Assembly: GCA_012401045.1 (NCBI GenBank)
Contig: GCA_012401045.1_4704.2
DNA: 64,000 bases
From: a phage
Strand: one strand, 5' to 3'
Position 1 is the first letter of the stretch; each line of letters opens with the position of its first letter. This document shows, in pieces, positions 3,773 to 51,451 of the stretch. The notes below the pieces were generated by a model. It saw only the letters and a list, made by a program, of their open reading frames with translations. It ran no database searches and was not told where the DNA came from. The position numbers were made by a program, and so were the translations under genes.

Positions 3773-4081
3773 ATGAGCAATTTGAACGTTGAATTTACTT
3801 CAACAACGCCTGTCATGAATGGTGTTGGCACTGAAACCAAAATCGTATTAGAACCCATTCCAGGGTTACGCGATCTCGGTGATTTTTATCCACTGATGCC
3901 GCGTATACGGAAGGCCTTAAACAGTATCGATCTTGATTCCAATAAAGATTTCCAACACGATACAGAAAATACCGATCATGTATTGCTGCCATCAGGGATC
4001 GCAAAATTCACCTACACGCAAACATTGAAAGCCTCTGATGGTGAAATCCGTCGTTTTATCGTTGAAGTAGAAAGCGCATAA
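3773..4081 (+). CDS. hypothetical protein (about 102 aa from ATG 3773; ORF track extends to GTG 3680)
   Basis: The GTG at 3680 and ATG at 3731 lack an RBS; ATG at 3773 has AAAAGG upstream; bidirectional hairpin downstream. Confidence 0.4.
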   Translation: MSNLNVEFTSTTPVMNGVGTETKIVLEPIPGLRDLGDFYPLMPRIRKALNSIDLDSNKDFQHDTENTDHVLLPSGIAKFTYTQTLKASDGEIRRFIVEVESA

Positions 4082-4085
4082 AAAC

Positions 4086-4117
4086 CATCCTCCCTTCCCT
4101 TACGGGTTGGGAGGATG
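4086..4117. terminator. conserved GC-rich hairpin family, copy between convergent genes
   Basis: CATCCTCCC-TTCCC-TTAC-GGGTT-GGGAGGATG; minus-strand reading has GTAA loop and is followed by GGTTTTT. Confidence 0.5.
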
Positions 4118-4134
4118 AAATATGCCGTTAAACG

Positions 4135-4780: not shown

Positions 4781-6034
4781 CTACTTCGTTTTCGCCGTTA
4801 TCGGCTGCGATACTGTAATCTCGACCCGATCGACATCGGTACGTTTAACGATGATAAGGCTGCGTTCATCACCGAATGGTTCTGAGATCTTACAAGCCTC
4901 TTTAAGATTTTCGAGAATCGTGCCATGGGGTTCAAACACCGCAAAACCGGAACTAGCGTCGATTCTTATTAAATATACACGCACATTGTTTACGGTAATG
5001 GTGTCATCCGTCTTGAACCCACAGCAGGAGGGTAGACAGAACTGACCATTAACGCAATTAGCTAAGTATGCCTCACCACCGAACATTTCTATTAACGTCA
5101 CCGGTTTAAATGTTTTCTCTGGGAAAGCATTATTAAGAATATCGTTTCCATTCACAAACCAGATCGTTACTTTATCTTCGGAATACGCTAGTCTGTATGG
5201 TTGGGTTGCGGACGCCTGCGCTTTATGCTGGTTAAATAACTTTGATTTTGTCGCAATCACAGCACGACCTTGGGCGTCAAAGTACAGAACTTCATACCCA
5301 ACACATCCGATAAACACGCGACGGTTATTAAGTTCCGGAATTCTGACTACTAACGCATTACCATCTTCCGTCGGTGTAATACCACGTAGGATGATAGATT
5401 CGTTGTTCAATGTTGAGTTGCTCACGATGACGCTTCGCATTACCGCTGGCGACACTATTTCATCTGCTGCAGGTTCAAGTTGCTCCGCTGTTACAGTCAC
5501 GGATCTGTCTTCCTTTTCAACTGGCCAGTTGAAAAGGATTGTTTTATTAAGACAAACAATTGGGGTAATTTCGCCGATACTCCGTATCTTGACTGAGGGG
5601 CAATTGCACACATACGGAACAAAAACATCAATATCGTTGGTCGCTTCTTCAAGCATGCTAGCATACGCCATTGCTTCGGGACGATCGGTGAGATGAATAA
5701 CAGCATAGACGATATCGTCTTTTAACCACGCACGTTTCACTCGTCCTATAACACGATTGATGTCTACAATAACTCTCTGAGCTTTCATCTCCCATTTTAC
5801 TGCATCAGTACCACCCGCAACCACGTTCGGTTTATCCGTGTTTACACGATGAAGGAAACTATTGATTATTTCCTCATCGATCTGGATATCCTTTCTCGCA
5901 AAATTCAACAACGGAATAACGAACTCATTGTTACCGCACTTCTCTGCTCCGCGAATGATAGGAGTACACTTCTTGTTCTCATCTGATCCCCAGATAACTT
6001 TAGTCATTTTCTGTTTCCTTCTTGGGTTTTGCAC
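4781..6034 (-). CDS. hypothetical protein (417 aa), Cys-rich C-terminal half
   Basis: Long ORF in the recombination/nucleotide-metabolism cluster; no metallophosphatase motif order recognisable. Confidence 0.5.
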   Translation of the reverse strand: MQNPRRKQKMTKVIWGSDENKKCTPIIRGAEKCGNNEFVIPLLNFARKDIQIDEEIINSFLHRVNTDKPNVVAGGTDAVKWEMKAQRVIVDINRVIGRVKRAWLKDDIVYAVIHLTDRPEAMAYASMLEEATNDIDVFVPYVCNCPSVKIRSIGEITPIVCLNKTILFNWPVEKEDRSVTVTAEQLEPAADEIVSPAVMRSVIVSNSTLNNESIILRGITPTEDGNALVVRIPELNNRRVFIGCVGYEVLYFDAQGRAVIATKSKLFNQHKAQASATQPYRLAYSEDKVTIWFVNGNDILNNAFPEKTFKPVTLIEMFGGEAYLANCVNGQFCLPSCCGFKTDDTITVNNVRVYLIRIDASSGFAVFEPHGTILENLKEACKISEPFGDERSLIIVKRTDVDRVEITVSQPITAKTK

Positions 6035-14159: not shown

Positions 14160-14938
14160 GCGAACGTTTCTCCTGTAACGTGTTGTGGACGTTGTAGCAT
14201 GGTAGCATCCCATTGTACGATCCGGCTCCGGCTTACCAGCATCATGACGGATTCATCGTCAAGCCCTGGTTGCGCAACCGGCAACCAACGTTCGTTAAGC
14301 ACCTTCGCTTCAACGCGTTTCTTGCGGGGATTGTAACGCACCTCGCTAACCCAAGCGAACCCAAGTGGATGCACAACCCGCGGATAATACGTGCGAAGCA
14401 ATTGATGCATCCGATCTGTCACCTCCAAGCTCGCCTCCGCCATGTAAGGTTTCACCGTGGTAAGCTTTTTGGTGTAATACGTTCCAACGGTATGGTTACG
14501 CCAACTTGGCAAGGCATGATCCCCTTCTCTCAGTTTGCTATCCGAGTTCATCGGCCAGACCTGCTGTTTACCGGCCAGCATCGCGTACTGCCGATCAACG
14601 CAACGAACCTGATCGGCGAACAATGGATCCAGAACATCATCCACCGCACCCTTATTGCGATAACCGTGATGTACCACCAACCTGCTTGCGCTCATCGATG
14701 CGGGATGCTGGCTCTTATGCGCATACAGCCCTCCGTCACCGCGAGGGTCGTAAAGATAGCCGCATGCGCCACGCCATATCACCTTGCCTACGGTTCTCTC
14801 GTTTTCAAGCAGCATCGTCGGCCCATCAAGCAAATTGGTGAACCACTGCACCTTCACGCATTCCGCTTGGACATGCTCAGGTAATGCCTGATACTCTTTT
14901 TGGGTGTATAAGGTATCAAAAATGATTTCATCGTTCAT
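14156..14938 (-). CDS. hypothetical protein (260 aa)
   Basis: ATG with AGAGGA SD; first gene downstream of promoter-like motif copy 2. Confidence 0.5.
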   Translation of the reverse strand: MNDEIIFDTLYTQKEYQALPEHVQAECVKVQWFTNLLDGPTMLLENERTVGKVIWRGACGYLYDPRGDGGLYAHKSQHPASMSASRLVVHHGYRNKGAVDDVLDPLFADQVRCVDRQYAMLAGKQQVWPMNSDSKLREGDHALPSWRNHTVGTYYTKKLTTVKPYMAEASLEVTDRMHQLLRTYYPRVVHPLGFAWVSEVRYNPRKKRVEAKVLNERWLPVAQPGLDDESVMMLVSRSRIVQWDATMLQRPQHVTGETFA

Positions 14939-15020
14939 TTAAAAGATCCTCTGTTTTTCACGTTAATTAAACAACGTATTGATTTCTATTTGACAGAACA
15001 CGAACATTGTACGTATCTAT

Positions 15021-15044
15021 CACTTAGGTAATATAGCCGTGAAA
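15021..15044 (-). promoter_or_regulatory. conserved 24-bp promoter-like motif, copy 2
   Basis: Identical to copy at 2489-2512; about 80 nt upstream of the 14938 start. Confidence 0.45.
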
Positions 15045-15311: not shown

Positions 15312-15719
15312 CATCTGTGCATTACACTCCGTTACATGCTAGTTAACAACGTTTTGTGAAGACAAAACGTTCAACTCAAAAAACATTTGTGATACTCTTC
15401 TTCACGTTGTTCATCAGAGTATCTCGTCTATACTCATTGCATTCGTATACGACATAACCGTTATACGCTAACGCTACGCTTATAGCTTGATAACTCTAAG
15501 GATAAAAACATAAACTCGCTTCGCTCGTTTAGTTTTTCTTTTTCTTAGAGTTATCCTGTTGCTCGTCTCTAAAGGACTTCGCTCCTCCCCCGTCCCCCGA
15601 AGGGGCCGAGGTCGTGGAAATTTTACTTTCCAAATACATTTACAACATCTGTAAACTTTTACTCCAGGTACTTAATCTTATCATTAGAAATTATAAAAGA
15701 GAATAAACACAAACATAAA

Positions 15720-15752
15720 CCTTCCTCCTTCCCTTACGGGTTGGAGGAAGGG
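15720..15752 (-). terminator. conserved GC-rich hairpin family copy downstream of the 15763-16656 gene
   Basis: Minus-strand reading CCTTCCTCC-AACCC-GTAA-GGGAA-GGAGGAAGG followed by TTTATGTTTG. Confidence 0.5.
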
Positions 15753-15762
15753 AGAGATTAAA

Positions 15763-20458: not shown

Positions 20459-23056
20459 TTATAACGTGACTGTACCTAATTTGGTTGTCTTATTGAGATT
20501 AATGACAGAGATCTGGGTATCGCTGGTCGTAATCGTTCCGATATTAACGCGCTGTCCTTTATCATCTTCTTGCTTGTAGATGGTTAACTCCAGTTCTAAC
20601 TGGTCGCCATTAGGAACAACGGAAACGTACCATGTTTTATTACCTGGTGAACTATTATAGTCTTTTAGGTTATAATGGCCTTTAGGTAAGGTCATGGCCT
20701 TACCGGCAAACAAACATGAAATGTCCTCGTTGATATAAACGTCGAAACCGGAAGAAGCGATGACTGTTGAGGCCATTATTCGAGACGCGACGATACCACG
20801 ATTATAGTCGTCGATTGTGGTACCTATGACATTGAATACTTGCCCCCCGTTACCCATAATGGTCGATTCGCTAGTGTTTACGTAGCCGATACCCCAAGTC
20901 GGATGAATGTTCCAGCGGTACCCACTGTTTTGTAAATACGTATACAAGTCTTCATAGGCCGCATTCACCCAACTACCATCACTTTTTCGTCCAGCCCTAA
21001 ATTGGAATGTGTTGCTATTTCCAGATGTTCCTCGGCCAAGAGGGACATGTCCCGCCACCAACCAACCATCTGTACTTTGCATATACGCGAACGAACCGTA
21101 CGCTCTGTTATCGGCCCAAATATTCACGGTATCAACACGTTCAACGTAGGCGATCACCTTTTGTACGCCGGTTATAGCGATTGAACCCTTGCGTGCCGAC
21201 ACATTAACTTCAGCAATTACGACACCCATTTTCCGCTGGCTGCTGTTAAATCCCAATACGACCATTAAACACGGTGCGTTTGTTGTTTCTGGAGGAATCG
21301 TTATCGATTGTTTCCAGTCGGTGATTCCGCTGAGTTTCGTTCCAGTATATGCGTTCCAGACGGTTTGTCCAGCCGATTTCAGATTCTGTTCAGAAATAGA
21401 AATGGCCTCGCCCTCAGGGATTAACGTGTCGTAATTGAGACCAATGTTGCTGGATAGACGAAGGTCGTTTAAGTAAGATCCGCTGAGTGTGACGTTACCG
21501 TTACGATAAATTGTCAAGAATGGCGCAGCCAGGGAGTTTAATACCGTAAAGTTACTCGATGGCATGAAACCATAGACATCGATGCCATTACCGTGGTAAT
21601 GGTAGTTTGTCCAACTACCTTGATAACTTACGGTACGTGCATCGTAGTGGCCTTGTCCAAGACCGCTGCTGGATAACGTGTATATCTTGGTTGCTGATAG
21701 AAATGCGAGATATCCATGCGCTGCCAGAGCTCCAACTACCCTGTCTTTTATCTTTAACCAAGCTGAAGTATACAACGTACTGTCGGGATTCATTTTGGCT
21801 ATTTCATCGTAAGCTGTGCCTGCGAAGTTTCCGATAGTGTACGTACGTATATCCGGCTGTCCGTTATTGTCGTTCTGTACAGCAATTACTTGCCCAGAAT
21901 CATTGATATCGATATTACCGATACAGTTGTGAGCCCCCCACACCCAATATCCATCTTTATAATTGGATTCTCCTTGTGTAAATGTCGACGGTCCTCGCCA
22001 CGCGATGCCGTTCGATTCGGCGTAGTAGGTAGCTTGTCCCGATCCTGGATTCATGGCGTATCTGTTATTGGTCGGGTCAAAATCGATGTAAAAATGATGC
22101 ATTCCTTGACGTTGACGGTTGTCCCGATCATTTGTCCACCACGACGAACCGACCAGAATTCGCGCCTTACCATTTTTTACAGTGGACCATAAACGTATTG
22201 CGGCGCGCCAGACGATTTGACCGATCCCGTTGGACGGGAAACTATTCGTACTGATGCTGTTGCAGACAACGAGCTCGCTGCTGTTGTTTATTTGAGTCCC
22301 TTCAATTGTAACGCCGTTTATGTTAGTAATCAGTGTTGCCGATACACTACCCCCTGTAGGGGCGATAGAGGAACGTTGAACGGTGTAAATTTTTAGTGAT
22401 AATTTATAGCCGCTCCGAATAGCTATACCAATGTAAATAGTTCCGTTAATTTCCCAACAACAAACATCGGGCATTGTTTCTTTGAAATCGGATAAAGCAC
22501 CGTCGATATACATCGCAACGTGTTTACTGGCGTCGAATGTGCCGTCCGTTAACGCGATGAACATTTTGGCATTATTACCGTTGATATCAGCCGCTAATCC
22601 GAGTAGTATGTTGTTCTGATGACAGTAGATGGCTTTAGGTGCTAGATCCAACATAGCTGGTTGGTACTGTCGGCTTGTTGGTATTACGCTAGTAACTGCA
22701 CCATTCTGATCCGTTTTACAAATAACGTAATATACACCGTGTATGATGCTGTTTGTCGCTGACCTCAGTAGGACGATCGTCCCGTCAGATTCACGACATA
22801 TACCGTAATGGCGATAGTCGGTGATTAAACCGATAGCGCCATCGGCCGAACCTTCGATTGCCAGAGGAAAATAACTTTGGTCCCCAACCTGTTCGATATC
22901 GGTTGCGCCAATATCGATGTATTTTTCCATCTCAGTGTTGAACTCAGCGGTACTGTAGGCACCGAGATCGCTCGCCTTTAGTCCCGTTGGGTTGTCACGA
23001 CTGGCGATACGCGTAGTAACGCTACTCACCAGTTCGCTGAACTTTTTCATTGTCAT
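20459..23056 (-). CDS. tail fibre or baseplate-associated protein (865 aa)
   Basis: Embedded in fibre module; N-terminus shares a SEL...DNP...A(A/S) motif with the two downstream small proteins. Confidence 0.5.
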   Translation of the reverse strand: MTMKKFSELVSSVTTRIASRDNPTGLKASDLGAYSTAEFNTEMEKYIDIGATDIEQVGDQSYFPLAIEGSADGAIGLITDYRHYGICRESDGTIVLLRSATNSIIHGVYYVICKTDQNGAVTSVIPTSRQYQPAMLDLAPKAIYCHQNNILLGLAADINGNNAKMFIALTDGTFDASKHVAMYIDGALSDFKETMPDVCCWEINGTIYIGIAIRSGYKLSLKIYTVQRSSIAPTGGSVSATLITNINGVTIEGTQINNSSELVVCNSISTNSFPSNGIGQIVWRAAIRLWSTVKNGKARILVGSSWWTNDRDNRQRQGMHHFYIDFDPTNNRYAMNPGSGQATYYAESNGIAWRGPSTFTQGESNYKDGYWVWGAHNCIGNIDINDSGQVIAVQNDNNGQPDIRTYTIGNFAGTAYDEIAKMNPDSTLYTSAWLKIKDRVVGALAAHGYLAFLSATKIYTLSSSGLGQGHYDARTVSYQGSWTNYHYHGNGIDVYGFMPSSNFTVLNSLAAPFLTIYRNGNVTLSGSYLNDLRLSSNIGLNYDTLIPEGEAISISEQNLKSAGQTVWNAYTGTKLSGITDWKQSITIPPETTNAPCLMVVLGFNSSQRKMGVVIAEVNVSARKGSIAITGVQKVIAYVERVDTVNIWADNRAYGSFAYMQSTDGWLVAGHVPLGRGTSGNSNTFQFRAGRKSDGSWVNAAYEDLYTYLQNSGYRWNIHPTWGIGYVNTSESTIMGNGGQVFNVIGTTIDDYNRGIVASRIMASTVIASSGFDVYINEDISCLFAGKAMTLPKGHYNLKDYNSSPGNKTWYVSVVPNGDQLELELTIYKQEDDKGQRVNIGTITTSDTQISVINLNKTTKLGTVTL

Positions 23057-26383: not shown

Positions 26384-27664
26384 ATGTATACATTGGTAAA
26401 AACTTACGGGTTACCCGTAGGTTCTGGCACGGCCTGGACAGCGCTTGAGGCGGGTGAAAGTGTCCTGAGTACGTTGTTCTCAACGTATCAAAAACTCAAG
26501 ATCCAGGTCCACGAAAGCTATGCTGACCAGCAACAAGTTATTGATCTGTACACATTTCAATCCGAGCTTCAAAACAGCAGCGATACGCTCAATGCGTGGT
26601 TGAAAGCGAAATCGGATGCGCATACCAACCTTCGTGGACAGCCTGGCGAGCTGTCGATTAAAACCCACAAGCTTTATTGTCACGACGCTATTACTGTAGG
26701 CTTTCTCCCTAAAGTCGGTAATAGTGGCTATCATCCGAGCAACGCGATCCCTGAGTCGGAACGCACTGATATCCTGTTGACGAAAGCGAATACGAATTAC
26801 GAAAATATCGGCAAACACTGCTTGTTCACCGTAGGCGGTTATGTTCATCCTCACGTCTACGGTAAAGACGTCGGTGTCTATATCCAGGGTGGGTTCAAGA
26901 CGGCACAGCGCAGCCAAGAAAACGATATCGGCATGATTGATTTTAGCCGTATCGGGAGTTTGGAAATCCATGCTATCACAGAAGAGATGATTGCTGATTC
27001 CACGAAGCTCTTGCCGTATAAGGACGAGATGTACTTGCGGTTACCGCGCAAGGTCGCCGAAGATGAAACCGTCGCGCTGGTGTTCGGGGGATATTTACAT
27101 CTTCTTGACGATTGTTACACGATCGTTAGCGACACGACAGCGAAAATAAACTGCATTAACATGTTTCTCTATGAACGGTACTTCCGTTCCCGTAAATACC
27201 TTGATCTAACATCTCTTGGTATTCTGTTGAACGAAGAAGACCCACAGTCCGACATTGTTGCCAATCGTTTATTGTCCGATAAAGCATTAAAAGCGTGGGT
27301 GACGCATCCTTGCAGTTTCTGGGTGTATATCAAAGCAACATCAATTCAGGTTACGCAAGAACCTTTACCACGAAGCGGTGTACCGGGACAGTATTTCTTA
27401 GGTAAGAAACCGGAAGGATTGATTCGGGCCGATCTCGGTGAGTTACCCGCTTACGTGCAGACCTATGAAAAACCGTTATGGGTACTTCACTCGCGCTGGG
27501 GACTTCGTAAGAACATGTTGTTTGAAAATACGTTGTACAAACATACGCGCGTTAAGCGACTTAACGATACGCCTTATCTTCACCAGGTCTGGTTGGAAAC
27601 GCATGCGACGTTGCAGACAGTACACAAGCTCGAATTGATCGATTCCAGTCAGAAAAACAAATAA
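26384..27664 (+). CDS. hypothetical protein (426 aa)
   Basis: ATG with AAGGGGG SD; divergent from fibre module; followed by conserved hairpin. Confidence 0.5.
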   Translation: MYTLVKTYGLPVGSGTAWTALEAGESVLSTLFSTYQKLKIQVHESYADQQQVIDLYTFQSELQNSSDTLNAWLKAKSDAHTNLRGQPGELSIKTHKLYCHDAITVGFLPKVGNSGYHPSNAIPESERTDILLTKANTNYENIGKHCLFTVGGYVHPHVYGKDVGVYIQGGFKTAQRSQENDIGMIDFSRIGSLEIHAITEEMIADSTKLLPYKDEMYLRLPRKVAEDETVALVFGGYLHLLDDCYTIVSDTTAKINCINMFLYERYFRSRKYLDLTSLGILLNEEDPQSDIVANRLLSDKALKAWVTHPCSFWVYIKATSIQVTQEPLPRSGVPGQYFLGKKPEGLIRADLGELPAYVQTYEKPLWVLHSRWGLRKNMLFENTLYKHTRVKRLNDTPYLHQVWLETHATLQTVHKLELIDSSQKNK

Positions 27665-27674
27665 CCAAACATAA

Positions 27675-27706
27675 CCCTCCTCCAACCCGTAAGGGAAGGA
27701 GGAGGG
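27675..27706. terminator. conserved GC-rich hairpin family copy (CCCTCCTCC-AACCC-GTAA-GGGAA-GGAGGAGGG)
   Basis: Between convergent genes; GNRA-type GTAA loop closed by CCC/GGG. Confidence 0.5.
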
Positions 27707-43028: not shown

Positions 43029-43178
43029 CGTCAACCTCCATCAGATTGAAAACTATCACGCATAATACATTTCCCTTTTCTTGTTCTTATCGAGCCGACA
43101 GCCGACGGTTTCAGCATCGTTCCTAGCGCGAGAACGACCTTACGTGTTGTCTATGCCTTATTCATCGCAGGCGTCTGT

Positions 43179-43202
43179 CACCTAGGTAATGTAAGCGTCA
43201 AA
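43179..43202 (-). promoter_or_regulatory. conserved 24-bp promoter-like motif, copy 3 (variant TTTGACGCTTACATTACCTAGGTG)
   Basis: Downstream of capsid-gene hairpin and about 150 nt upstream of the 43028 start. Confidence 0.4.
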
Positions 43203-48037: not shown

Positions 48038-48069
48038 CCCTCCTCCAACCCGTAAGGGAAGGAGGAAGG
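48038..48069. terminator. conserved GC-rich hairpin family copy, flanked by A13/T13 homopolymer
   Basis: CCCTCCTCC-AACCC-GTAA-GGGAA-GGAGGAAGG; preceded by 13 A at about 48012-48026. Confidence 0.5.
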
Positions 48070-48085
48070 TTTATGACCGCTTTGA

Positions 48086-48412
48086 TTAACTTATTGTCAT
48101 GAATTCATTAGGTGAAAATTTCCAGCCGTTCTCAGTGAGAAGCGTGTTGAGTTTTGCCGCAACGATAAGCCATGCATGCATGGCCGTTACATCGTATTGG
48201 CGATTCACTCGACGTTGGTTTTCGATATTGATTTGCTCCTGTTCAGTGATGTTTGGATAAAGTGCGATAGCGCTAGGTTTACCCAGCGCGCTAGTCATCA
48301 CCGCCGTACATTCACTGATAATGTTGTTTAAGTGGTAGTTATACACCGTTCCACGCATGACGCGATGACGGCATTCGATAATAGCGTCGTAAATGATTTC
48401 TCGAGTAATCAT
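48086..48412 (-). CDS. hypothetical small protein (108 aa)
   Basis: ORF in minus-strand array. Confidence 0.4.
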   Translation of the reverse strand: MITREIIYDAIIECRHRVMRGTVYNYHLNNIISECTAVMTSALGKPSAIALYPNITEQEQINIENQRRVNRQYDVTAMHAWLIVAAKLNTLLTENGWKFSPNEFMTIS

Positions 48413-48418
48413 GATAAT

Positions 48419-48820
48419 TTAAAACATACGGTCGTTTTTAGCACGGGCGTCCATTACCAGATCGTAGATGCCTGCGGTTCGTAAGCACTCTTCGTAGTAA
48501 CGATGTGTGCCTTCCTCAGCCATCCACGATAACCCTCGGCTATCCGCAACGATAACCAGTTTGTTATTGTTGAACGCACACACCACACGGTAGGTCGCGT
48601 TGTTATTCGGATCGCGAGTGATAAGTTCGTAAACGCCGTTAACAGGTTTACTGAATTCGCCGTTTAACGGAACGAGTTCGGTAGTACCTTCAGCAAACGT
48701 TACGTTGATCGGTGATGGGTCTTTAGCGATAACAGTATATTCCACATTGTGTTCTTTACTGGTCATAATACCGAAGTAAGAACTCACAGGGGAACGCGGT
48801 ACACTAAGAATATTAAACAT
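48419..48820 (-). CDS. hypothetical small protein (133 aa)
   Basis: ORF in minus-strand array. Confidence 0.4.
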   Translation of the reverse strand: MFNILSVPRSPVSSYFGIMTSKEHNVEYTVIAKDPSPINVTFAEGTTELVPLNGEFSKPVNGVYELITRDPNNNATYRVVCAFNNNKLVIVADSRGLSWMAEEGTHRYYEECLRTAGIYDLVMDARAKNDRMF

Positions 48821-48889
48821 AAATGTTGTCCTCTTAATTGGATTTAGATTGTTGGGTATGTGATTGGAAATGAAAACGTTGTTTCGGTT

Positions 48890-49459
48890 TTAGACGATGA
48901 GTGACCAGGTGGTAAGCACCCCACTTGCGAATTCGAGCTTAAGACGTTTACCGATAAGTTGTTGCTGGATCATCTTCTCGGTGATACGTCGATCATGCTG
49001 AACCGCTTTATCAAACGCTTCTTTCGCTTCAGCTTGGTAGAAGTTCGTTTCTTCGTTTTCGTCGATCTCTTCGAGAGCATCGTCGTCGATGTCAGCAAGT
49101 TTCACTCGACCGTTTTCATCAGGTTGTTCTGCAGGTTCATTGTCATACGGCGTGTCTTTTGTTGGTGCGACACGATGTTGCAACTCGACCTGCGTTAACA
49201 TGATCTCCATCTCACCATCGATAGGAATGATTTCATCGGCGCTGCCGTTTTCGGTCAGCTCGCGACTTTCCAGTAATGTCGTCGTAACAGAGAACACCTC
49301 TTCAACAGGAACCTCATCATCGTCGATGGTGTTAACCGTGTTGCTGGTAACTTCAGCAACAACCATCAAATCAAATGCGTGAGGGTCACCTGGCATTTTG
49401 ATTCCTGGAAGTTTGTTGAGGTACCAAGGATCAAGAATCATGATTTCTGGATTAAACAT
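48890..49459 (-). CDS. hypothetical acidic protein (189 aa)
   Basis: Asp/Glu-rich ORF in minus-strand array. Confidence 0.4.
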   Translation of the reverse strand: MFNPEIMILDPWYLNKLPGIKMPGDPHAFDLMVVAEVTSNTVNTIDDDEVPVEEVFSVTTTLLESRELTENGSADEIIPIDGEMEIMLTQVELQHRVAPTKDTPYDNEPAEQPDENGRVKLADIDDDALEEIDENEETNFYQAEAKEAFDKAVQHDRRITEKMIQQQLIGKRLKLEFASGVLTTWSLIV

Positions 49460-49535
49460 CGTATTTTACCTTTCTATGTTAGGTGGATTTCGGATAGAAG
49501 AATCAATGCATAAACTAATTTAAGTTTGTTAAGGT

Positions 49536-50438
49536 TTACTTAGCCTTTGAGTTATACGGACTAACATGTTGTTGTACTCGTTGGATTGTATCGTAGTACG
49601 GGTTAAGTTGATTGAACATGTTGTTGTGTGGGTGATAGCCATATGGCGCATTTTGCCTTGTTGGTGAGAAACCTTGTTGAGAAGGACGGTTTGAATTAAC
49701 CGCGAGTACGTAGTAAACCAAATTTTGGCGGTCGAACGTTCCTTCGTTTTTGAAGGTGTCGGCGTAGGCGCTTACCGCTGGAGCGAGCCTATCACCATCG
49801 GTTGTAATGATTGTGCCATCGGGATAAACTTCCCGAACGACGCACCATGTTCCGATGAGAACATCTTTGGGTGATGTATTACCGTATCCGGTTGTAACGG
49901 TAAGGTAAGTATCGAACCCTTCAGAACAACAAGGATGACGATAGATGGGTCCTGTCATTTCCAGTCTATCGGTGTCACCGCATTTCTCTATTGAGAGCGA
50001 TGATGTGTCGGTTTTGAAATTGTCAAATTCTTTCTTTAAGTCGATTACGGGTTCTTTCGTATAGTACTTCTTGATTGCTTTGACGTAAAGATCGGGAACG
50101 GTTGTCAGCAATCCGTTATACCTGATTCTCAGGTTTTCGAGTAATCCAAAGATGCTCGCGCATGCCTGTTCGCGAGGTTTTGTAAGATAAGAGATCCCCC
50201 CAGGAACGCTGGGATCTTTGAGAAAGAAGATTGCGTTATTGTCGTTGTGCGATGCGTTGAAGAAAACGATTGATTCGATATATACGGAGCATAGGCTGTC
50301 GTTGGCGTCGTCAGATAACACCCAGATGCACTCATCGGTCGTCTTGTTTAAAAGTTCTGTTTTGTCGACCAAACGTTGTTTCATTGCGAGGAAATGTGCC
50401 TGTTGTTCAGCGGATAATTCACGATAAATGGTGGTCAT
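49536..50438 (-). CDS. hypothetical protein (300 aa), paralog of 50524-51306
   Basis: Shared motif IY-x-HP-x-C ... YLT-x-T-x-G ... REVYPDG-x-I; ATG with AAGGAG SD. Confidence 0.5.
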   Translation of the reverse strand: MTTIYRELSAEQQAHFLAMKQRLVDKTELLNKTTDECIWVLSDDANDSLCSVYIESIVFFNASHNDNNAIFFLKDPSVPGGISYLTKPREQACASIFGLLENLRIRYNGLLTTVPDLYVKAIKKYYTKEPVIDLKKEFDNFKTDTSSLSIEKCGDTDRLEMTGPIYRHPCCSEGFDTYLTVTTGYGNTSPKDVLIGTWCVVREVYPDGTIITTDGDRLAPAVSAYADTFKNEGTFDRQNLVYYVLAVNSNRPSQQGFSPTRQNAPYGYHPHNNMFNQLNPYYDTIQRVQQHVSPYNSKAK

Positions 50439-50523
50439 GTTGAGCTCCTTGATTACGATAAGGATGATTGCGGTTTTGTGGTGTTGGTAGGGCCCTAAAC
50501 AAATGAACCCTACTAATATTAGG

Positions 50524-51306
50524 TTAATCGGGATCGGCGTAGAAATGGTGAGGATAGCCGGAGTACGATCCCGCGTTACCGGTTATGGATTCTTTCTGGG
50601 AATCGACGACGAGTGCATAGAACTGTCGGGAATTTGTTAGCGTTGAGAAATAAGAGGAAAGGACTTTTTCATTCAACGCATCGCAAGGTAGACAGGTGCG
50701 ACCGCAAAACGTCACGATACGGCCGTCAGGATAGATCTCACGAATCATTCTCCACTCGCCAATATCGACTGGTGATGGCGCTGCTACACCACCTGTTATC
50801 GTTAAGTAACGATCGTACGTGGTATGGCATTCAGGATGAACGTAAATCGGTTGGGCATCAATACTATCGTTTTCTGTTTGATCTTTATTCACGTATACCT
50901 CAAGGTAGATTGTTGGTAACCCGGTTAGAACGCCAGTGTCACGACGTTTTTTGGTAATCCGGGGACGGATATTATCGAGCACGCCTTCCAGTTTTTCTGC
51001 GACTTCGTCAGCCGGTAATATATACCCGTATGTTGGTTCTGGGTCATCACCGTGGCTAAATAAGATACGACAGTCGTTTTTATTAAATTCTATATCTTCA
51101 GGTGGGAAGATGATGACGCGAACCGTATGGCGTTCTGCGATATAAAATCCTTCAGGCCCCTCAGTTTTGGTAAGTGTAAAGGACCAGGATGAATGATCTT
51201 CAAGTGACGTGCCTGCCAGGAAAAAGTCCGCCCGAATTGGTGCGTTCCATTTCGCGATCATATTGGCGTGACCAATAACGCCTAATTTTTGATAAATATC
51301 TGTCAT
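50524..51306 (-). CDS. hypothetical protein (260 aa), paralog of 49536-50438
   Basis: Shared Cys/His-containing motif; ATG with GAGGA SD; promoter-like motif copy 4 upstream. Confidence 0.5.
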   Translation of the reverse strand: MTDIYQKLGVIGHANMIAKWNAPIRADFFLAGTSLEDHSSWSFTLTKTEGPEGFYIAERHTVRVIIFPPEDIEFNKNDCRILFSHGDDPEPTYGYILPADEVAEKLEGVLDNIRPRITKKRRDTGVLTGLPTIYLEVYVNKDQTENDSIDAQPIYVHPECHTTYDRYLTITGGVAAPSPVDIGEWRMIREIYPDGRIVTFCGRTCLPCDALNEKVLSSYFSTLTNSRQFYALVVDSQKESITGNAGSYSGYPHHFYADPD

Positions 51307-51361
51307 GATTGTATCCTCGGTTATTAAGAGAATTTACAACGATAACAGTAACCGCTGTTAT

Positions 51362-51385
51362 CACCTAGGTAATGTAGTCGCGAAA
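51362..51385 (-). promoter_or_regulatory. conserved 24-bp promoter-like motif, copy 4 (variant TTTCGCGACTACATTACCTAGGTG)
   Basis: About 55 nt upstream of the 51306 start, immediately downstream of a family hairpin. Confidence 0.4.
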
Positions 51386-51419
51386 TAAACTGGAGTAATG
51401 CGAAATAAGACAGCATAAG

Positions 51420-51451
51420 CCCTCTCCCAACCCGTAAGGGAAGGGAGAGGG
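51420..51451 (-). terminator. conserved GC-rich hairpin family copy
   Basis: CCCTCTCCC-AACCC-GTAA-GGGAA-GGGAGAGGG just past the stop of the 51456-52823 gene. Confidence 0.5.

Follow-up and report, generated by a model that had tools for sequence, protein, structure and literature searches.

What is encoded by the two adjacent minus-strand genes at positions 49536-51306 of a 64,000-nucleotide stretch of phage DNA (GenBank assembly GCA_012401045.1, contig GCA_012401045.1_4704.2; the whole stretch is called the window here), and what might their products do for the phage? In the flanks of both genes the window is ~97% identical to the nucleus-forming chimallivirus Escherichia phage vB_EcoM_Goslar (Goslar). 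An earlier sequence-only reading had called two open reading frames of 300 and 260 residues at this site, and both are present: paralog B (260 residues; 50524-51306, minus) is the first gene of an early operon and paralog A (300 residues; 49536-50438, minus) the second, B lying upstream of A in the direction of transcription across an 85-nt spacer. We find at this locus an array of uncharacterised early accessory genes that is restricted to one phage lineage; loci of this general kind are familiar from other phages. We tentatively read the products of the array as factors that act on the host.

The two proteins are homologous nearly end to end (BLASTP, 25% identity over 292 columns, E=2e-19). 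The sequence-only reading had taken them for tandem paralogs on the strength of three shared motifs, and pairwise alignment bears this out, placing all three in register and thus positionally conserved (A/B: PIYrHPcC/PIYvHPeC, YLTvTtG/YLTiTgG and REvYPDGtI/REiYPDGrI). AlphaFold models of A (predicted local distance difference test (pLDDT) 60.9, predicted template modelling score (pTM) 0.40) and B (pLDDT 68.9, pTM 0.51) have the same order of secondary-structure elements, and this modelled agreement, together with the end-to-end homology, supports a tandem duplication of one fold. No third copy was found in the window, either by tblastn or by scanning all six-frame open reading frames with the family hidden Markov model (HMM).

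Both models begin with a well-predicted N-terminal alpha/beta domain of ~125-140 residues (B residues 1-140, 50887-51306, AF2 pLDDT about 75-90; A residues 1-125, 50064-50438, pLDDT 74-89 over residues 1-100; all domains on the minus strand). A low-confidence linker (11 residues in B, about 37 in A) leads to a ~90-residue beta-rich C-terminal domain of moderate confidence (A residues 163-250, 49689-49952; B residues 152-237, 50596-50853), which is followed by an aromatic-rich tail with pLDDT <50. In A, both the linker (residues 126-162) and the tail (residues 251-300) have pLDDT <50. The C-domain of B holds PIYvHPeC, YLTITGG and WRMIREIYPDGRIVT, together with three cysteines of its own (C201, C205 and C208). 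Between subfamilies the N-domains are 14-23% identical and the C-domains 30-44%, and the 16 residues that are invariant across the family (A numbering: Y166, H168, P169, D176, Y178, L179, V193, G196, W198, R202, E203, D207, G208, T212, G215 and P220) all lie in the C-domain; beyond these, only the initial Met-Thr is invariant.

The family consists of four full-length subfamilies (A, B, C and D), a stand-alone N-domain form (134 residues; HMM E=4e-14) and a stand-alone C-domain form (148 residues). A search of 5.8 billion proteins returned 24 clusters (5 A-type and 19 B-type). When 1.84 billion representatives were searched exhaustively with a profile, four clusters at 50% identity came back, namely A, B, C (P0025) and D (P0026), the further matches being one 40-residue fragment and two marginal NHL-repeat proteins. 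Every named copy is annotated 'hypothetical protein' and sits on a contig of about 236-244 kb in an E. coli, Salmonella or Shigella assembly. Pfam, PHROG and NCBIfam had nothing meaningful for A, B, C or D, and no family recurred when 15 members were scanned against Pfam at E<=10. PADLOC had no match for A, B or D and one weak partial match for the C type (E=0.019), which we judged to be due to chance; the best PDB sequence against the family profile was PrgE at a non-significant E=0.66. No match was found by tblastn of A against 50,697 phage genomes or by nucleotide search of complete E. coli genomes and plasmids, and a scan of the contigs of GTDB representative genomes with gp48 found no relatives. 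Together these searches show that this orphan, two-domain family is confined to Goslar-like chimalliviruses.

Goslar-like genomes themselves (~234-250 kb) turn up often, both in isolate assemblies (Salmonella, Shigella, E. coli) and in metagenomes, and their gp48 protein alone was indexed in 247 collection blocks, yet none was found among RefSeq complete E. coli genomes, PLSDB plasmids or GTDB representatives. Such contigs are known as 'persistent' Goslar-like phages (bioRxiv 10.1101/2024.12.31.630880), and this distribution is consistent with the published description of persistent virulent jumbo phages.

The NHL-type targets P0028 and P0029 carry 7 and 10 NHL repeats and match the family over a 17-residue hairpin, IREIYPDGRIVT, only; they pass the threshold because they repeat that hairpin five to seven times. 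Since the match is a single one of hairpin length (profile positions 187-204) and there is no PF01436/NHL Pfam match for A-D, we rejected an NHL-repeat beta-propeller. The likeness stays at motif level: the family segment xIRExYPDGxIxTxxG resembles the strand-turn-strand 'IRRIxPDGxVxTxAG' of NHL-type blades, but is present here in a single copy, in contrast to five to seven or more tandem blades in the propellers. As judged from this resemblance, the segment probably forms a beta-hairpin with a PDG turn.

Predicted early transcription of the operon

Upstream of B lies the motif TTTCGCGACTACATTACCTAGGTGA, of the early, virion RNA polymerase (vRNAP) promoter type (TTTCGCGACTACATTACCTAGGTGATA; 51359-51390, minus), with the core CTACATTACCTAGGTGA at 51361-51377 (minus). 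The window holds four copies of CTAYATTACCTARGTGA (at 2488, 15020, 43178 and 51361), all on the minus strand, against 0 expected from shuffled sequences, and the consensus of the four (2488-2504, 15020-15036, 43178-43194 and 51361-51377) reads TTT[CG][AG]CGnCTAYATTACCTARGTGA. Copy four stops 55 nt before the ATG that starts B, and A and B are indeed the first genes behind it, as had been noted from the letters alone. Among the loci compared, the motif is kept upstream of the array in L001-L014 and also in L016, L017, L019, L020, L023, L026 and L028. It matches the phiKZ-like early-promoter consensus sequences (TATATTAC for phiKZ, TTTRARR_BTATATTACDWHDGTG for 201phi2-1; PMC7058600), and motifs of this type found bioinformatically were early vRNAP promoters wherever transcripts were mapped (PMC7598289).

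In published Goslar RNA sequencing (RNA-seq), a control is set against a ChmA knockdown, in which infection gets no further than the vesicle stage (bioRxiv 10.1101/2023.09.20.558163, Sup. Table 2). Among gp1-50, the transcripts of gp1-4, gp14-21, gp37-40 and gp44-47 persist in the knockdown (log2 fold change +0.2 to +1.4), whereas those of the other genes fall by 2.5 to 7.5 log2 units. The late-to-early switch nearest to our locus falls between gp48 and gp47, with values of +0.7 to +1.3 for gp47-gp44 against about -3 for gp48-50 (same source). On the Goslar annotation, the four motif copies map directly upstream of gp4, gp21, gp40 and gp47, each the 5'-most gene of one of the four early blocks, and the gp40 block includes a homolog of the phiKZ non-virion RNA polymerase (nvRNAP) subunit gp123 (PDB 7ogp_E, E=2.9e-40), a known early gene. 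Motif copy 4 is thus best read as an early promoter. By analogy with the Goslar operon, we predict that A and B are co-transcribed early with the homologs of gp46 (189 residues, isoelectric point (pI) 4.15), gp45 (133 residues) and gp44 (108 residues), which make up the rest of the same operon (48086-49459, minus), and that the transcript ends at a hairpin at 48038-48069.

In several respects the operon resembles the early vRNAP operons of phiKZ-like phages and other chimalliviruses: its promoter has an AT-rich core of the TATATTAC type, preceded by a TTT-N-R-R element and followed by GTG, its orthologous Goslar transcripts persist without formation of the phage nucleus, and another copy of its motif heads the operon with the gp123-homologous nvRNAP subunit. 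It differs from them in its cargo, a lineage-specific paralog array that has no counterpart in phiKZ, 201phi2-1, RAY or other sequenced phages.

Array variation and selection

The segment at 49513-51301 (1789 bp, no strand assigned) contains A and B and is replaced in Goslar by 89 bp. Over the first 58 kb of the window, nothing else is present in one of the two phages and absent from the other (blastn); the remaining gaps in that comparison are divergent segments of equal length. In Goslar the same ribosome-binding site and ATG are retained and lead into an open reading frame of 25 codons, MTLLIRDPSEYENTRYNHNQFGNNF. This corresponds to the first 11-12 and the last 11 residues of the D-type protein (MTLLIRDPSEHES...YNHNRFGNNF), which at its full length of 291 residues occupies the same site in other phages. 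All array-less loci examined have one and the same remnant junction, and one of them (L028) lacks the start codon. The null allele thus goes back to one ancestral internal deletion of a D-type gene. Given that Goslar is vigorous in the laboratory and keeps just this remnant, the array genes are dispensable for lytic growth. Goslar_00047, annotated at the same place as a 62-residue protein (MK327938 49584-49772, L001 6531-6719, about 51302-51417 of the window), starts inside the promoter/terminator region and is probably not a real protein, because the conserved ribosome-binding site and ATG define only the 25-codon D-type remnant.

We sampled array states through exact identity of the neighbouring gp48 protein, a criterion that is independent of whether the family is present. 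In 10 contexts with a 100% identical gp48, four had the remnant only, one had D only, three had B and A, and two had B, C and a C-domain of D. Loci found by other routes had the N-only form with B and A (L010-12) or B, C and a full-length D (L006), and two of three Goslar-like genomes in IMG/VR were without the array. The array therefore holds 0, 1, 2 or 3 members among phages with identical flanking gene products, and a B-type gene, where present, always comes first. The array was also considered as a mark of 'persistent' as opposed to plaque-forming phages and rejected, array-less alleles being common in metagenome-derived contigs too; since four of the 10 contexts and L016 are array-less, we claim no association with persistence.

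Exchange has affected both whole genes and single domains. Against L006 the B gene is collinear and A is replaced by C plus D. In L003, L005 and L008 the N-domain of B is replaced, with no detectable nucleotide similarity (blastn) between breakpoints at 51293 (~codon 5) and 50850 (~codon 152, in the PIY motif) and about 95% identity over the remaining locus. A conserved leader of ~40 nt with a ribosome-binding site lies 5' of A (50434-50475, minus) and also precedes the C-type and D-type genes of L006 (both by blastn); it could guide recombinational exchange. As judged from these alignments, whole genes and whole N-domains have been exchanged by recombination, and the diversity of the family arises mainly through such cassette replacement.

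The pairwise ratio of nonsynonymous to synonymous substitution rates (dN/dS) against orthologs was 0.07-0.36 for B and 0.09-0.62 for A, and by part 0.11-0.62 for the N part and 0.07-0.22 for the C part (0.07-0.14 for the C-domain of B); the near-identical pair L013_A was set apart from these ranges for having too few substitutions. Both domains are therefore under purifying selection, with a much stronger constraint on the C-domain; these are functional coding genes whose N-domain is the less constrained part. These values largely refute the least probable explanation of the locus, to which we give scarcely any credence, that the genes are decaying duplicates or spurious open reading frames without current function: repeated loss and truncation (to 148 residues and to 25 codons, with the start codon lost in one remnant) and the thriving of Goslar without these genes would fit it, but full-length copies have dN/dS down to 0.07 at dS 0.2-1.9, dozens of independent assemblies have the reading frames unbroken, and 16 residues beyond Met-Thr are invariant at a C-domain identity of only 30-44%.

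Possible roles and metal binding

With a probability of roughly 0.45, we read A and B, from their context and by analogy, as early, non-essential host-interaction factors, for counter-defence or host takeover. The early infection vesicle would be where their mRNA is transcribed; the proteins would appear within minutes of infection and act in the host cytoplasm. The conserved C-module of ~90 residues (Y-x-H-P, D-x-Y-L, G-x-W, R-E, D-G, T, G and P) would provide a constant activity or partner contact, the exchangeable N-module of ~130 residues would set target specificity, and several diverged copies would give a broader range of targets; in B-type proteins only, a Cys/His metal site might stabilise the C-domain.

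The setting is a well-known one. Large lytic phages have hyperplastic accessory regions with tandem early paralogs, such as modA/modB of T4 and the variable regions between the modules of T4-like phages. The array resembles these in being non-essential and early, in varying in copy number among close relatives, in being embedded between conserved core modules and in having been shaped by recombination; it has no sequence, domain or fold relationship with them. Several points weigh against a host-interaction role. Neither A nor B has a homolog outside the family, or a match to a known domain or fold, that would point to a function, and the AlphaFold models are moderate (pTM as above). The operon whose early expression is shown is the orthologous one of Goslar, itself without A and B. 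The N-domain dN/dS is mostly well below 1, with no signal of pervasive positive selection. The step from a variable early accessory locus to counter-defence is also an argument by analogy.

The sequence-only reading had seen further conserved Cys residues and suggested a possible metal-binding fold duplicated in tandem. On this point the alignment upholds the duplication and parts company with the metal. A and B have just one Cys column (C171/C160) and one His column (H168/H157) in common, the other six Cys of A and the other four of B aligning with non-Cys residues. Across subfamilies A-D there is one invariant His and no invariant Cys; members of the D subfamily have His (HPYHQ, HPDHQ) where the motif IY-x-HP-x-C ends in Cys. 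A structural zinc site would keep three or four Cys/His ligands in all members, usually arranged as two knuckles of the CxxC or HxxC kind, and here H168 is the sole invariant one. No Pfam zinc-finger, HNH or radical-SAM match was found even at E<=10, and for HNH or His-Me finger nucleases specifically neither any of the 15 members (Pfam, E<=10) nor the PDB sequences gave a match. The aligned residues thus do not support a metal-binding fold common to A and B.

The B type has more to offer. A CX3CX2C cluster, C201-x3-C205-x2-C208, is confined to B-type proteins; H157, C201, C205 and C208 are kept in 17 of 17 B-type sequences and C160 in 16 (Tyr in P0020). The A residues aligned with C201, C205 and C208 are D, L and A, and at the second ligand pair of B the A, C and D types read LAPA, LTPT and LTPA. 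As the B type alone has enough ligands for a Cys/His site, its sequence makes a metal site (Zn, conceivably Fe-S) possible for the 260-residue protein only. Radical SAM was rejected as a candidate, as CX3CX2C occurs in B only, a beta-rich domain of ~90 residues falls far short of the (partial) TIM barrel of 200 residues or more that houses the motif in those enzymes, and PF04055 gave no match at E<=10.

We think a metal-dependent or nucleic-acid-binding role specific to B unlikely, if worth setting out. In this narrower form of the sequence-only idea the conserved C-domain would be a small Cys/His metal-binding module (a zinc knuckle, a treble-clef-like fold or an Fe-S site) and the proteins nucleic-acid-binding or regulatory factors. 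The ligand set of B speaks for this, as does the modelled position of C205-L-P-C208 at the start of a predicted helix (residues 211-220), a Cys pair at a helix start being reminiscent of treble-clef fingers, and B-type proteins also carry a basic RITKKRR patch. Against it, the second ligand pair is missing from the A, C and D types and the first Cys from D, the single invariant His and the absence of zinc-finger, HNH and radical-SAM matches apply here too, and the ligand region of B (residues 156-164) is modelled at pLDDT below 50 (AlphaFold).

Distinctly unlikely, in our estimate, is a more specific proposal in which A and B are modular early effectors of a new fold, the constant C-domain carrying a possible H/D/R/E/D active or docking site and exchange of the entire N-domain re-targeting the protein. 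Arrays of diverged copies would then help near-identical jumbo phages to cope with differing cytoplasmic defences or host states in E. coli, Salmonella and Shigella. The models being only moderate, the want of a fold match is weak evidence for a new fold. If the proposal were true, such effector arrays could serve the persistent, non-lytic infections typical of Goslar-like phages.

The variation of the array also recalls selfish mobile cassettes, comparable to free-standing homing endonucleases, that spread in co-infection without benefit to the phage. Presence and absence vary at one fixed intergenic site between otherwise near-identical genomes, the conserved leader on each downstream copy could guide recombination, and the invariant residues include the polar H, D, R, E and D. 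We nevertheless consider this improbable: there is no nuclease motif and no Pfam nuclease family, merely four sequence types exist at a single locus with two domains that are exchanged separately, the 64-kb window has no additional copies, and the array-less allele is an internal deletion of a D-type gene rather than an empty target site.

Slightly less credible again is that the proteins are virion-associated accessories, such as baseplate or tail decorations or injected proteins. The early operon (array, gp46, gp45 and gp44) is wedged between late structural operons, the array lying directly downstream of the spike-cap gene gp48 within a structural block that includes the PF12699 'inner body' paralogs, and IREIYPDGRIVT resembles an NHL beta-propeller strand-turn-strand found in many adhesin-like proteins. 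However, a terminator hairpin and the early promoter lie between the array and gp48, the Goslar operon at the same position is of the early class and gp48-50 of the late one, and packaging would need late synthesis; complete Goslar virions are built without A/B genes; and there is no PF12699 or NHL Pfam match, the NHL likeness covering 17 residues and reaching significance only through the repeats of the targets. The PF12699 family of phiKZ and Goslar (gp53-58) is similar in consisting of tandem chimallivirus paralogs in the same core block, a few kb away. Its proteins are late, abundant in the virion and injected, whereas the A/B family is preceded by an early promoter and, having no gene in the Goslar genome, is missing from the Goslar virion as well. 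In the part of the Goslar virion mass spectrometry table that we examined, gp45 is listed at ~6 copies, the same level as cytoplasmic enzymes, and gp44, gp46 and gp47 are not found, which suggests that the products of the operon are not virion-linked.

Neighbouring features and wider significance

The array is bounded upstream by late structural genes, which in Goslar include gp48 (spike cap), gp50 (stopper) and gp51 (tail terminator; bioRxiv 10.64898/2026.04.21.720040). The last gene of this upstream operon is the homolog of gp48, a baseplate spike-cap gene of 455 residues, and the operon ends at a terminator-like hairpin, CCCTCTCCC-TTCCCTTACGGGTT-GGGAGAGGG (51420-51451, minus). The hairpin CCTTCCTCC-TTCCCTTACGGGTT-GGAGGAGGG at 48038-48069 (minus), followed by a T run, is likely to be the end of the early operon and to be common to the convergent DnaB-like helicase gene. 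These are two of five terminator-like hairpins in the window, at 4081-4122(+), 15715-15756(+), 27656-27697(-), 48038-48069(-) and 51420-51451(-), that mark operon boundaries between early and late blocks. All five have an identical centre, TTCCCTTACGGGTT, with an inner CCC/GGG stem and a TTAC loop, and their outer stems vary yet stay complementary (CCCTCTCCC/GGGAGAGGG, CCTTCCTCC/GGAGGAAGG and others).

Within the operon, the spacer between B and A contains an inverted repeat, GTAGGG...CCCTAC (50484-50513), which could form an RNA processing or attenuation hairpin. The gp46 homolog (48890-49459, minus), called as 189 or 168 residues depending on the relative, is strongly acidic (pI 4.15, 42 D+E) and could be a DNA-mimic-like early protein.

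Some relatives have an extra gene of 210/236 residues between the spike-cap gene and the early promoter (L003 5226-5858; L010 3738-4448; L012 1745-2377; L016 and L018 7307-8017; L023 5807-6517). Its candidate identity as an R-S-E ADP-ribosyltransferase (YRG, SFT and QRE, recognised by eye) was rejected, as Pfam, PHROG and PDB sequence searches lent it no support and gave weak TusA-like matches only.

Elsewhere in the window, three segments of equal length have no megablast similarity to Goslar (20759-22192, 5486-6013 and 14503-14846) and lie within genes that are 94-97% identical. The largest divergent segment falls within the 865-residue gp26 homolog, adjoining the gp25 homolog; the Goslar annotation links gp25 to a Peptidase_S74 (pfam13884) domain, and the pattern suggests host-range cassette exchange in gp26. 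Another divergent segment lies in gp21, which opens one of the early blocks.

To our knowledge, Goslar serves as the model nucleus-forming jumbo phage of E. coli and is the only cultured member of its group, and we know of no published early-promoter consensus for it. By tying the motif to the early blocks of the published RNA-seq, our analysis provides a usable early-promoter consensus for the genus. Many wild relatives of Goslar retain the early-gene array in one form or another, and the laboratory phage itself has a deletion allele of it. Should the array modulate host interaction, work confined to Goslar would miss such effects. With 0, 1, 2 or 3 copies occurring naturally in almost isogenic genomes, a ready-made experiment is at hand.

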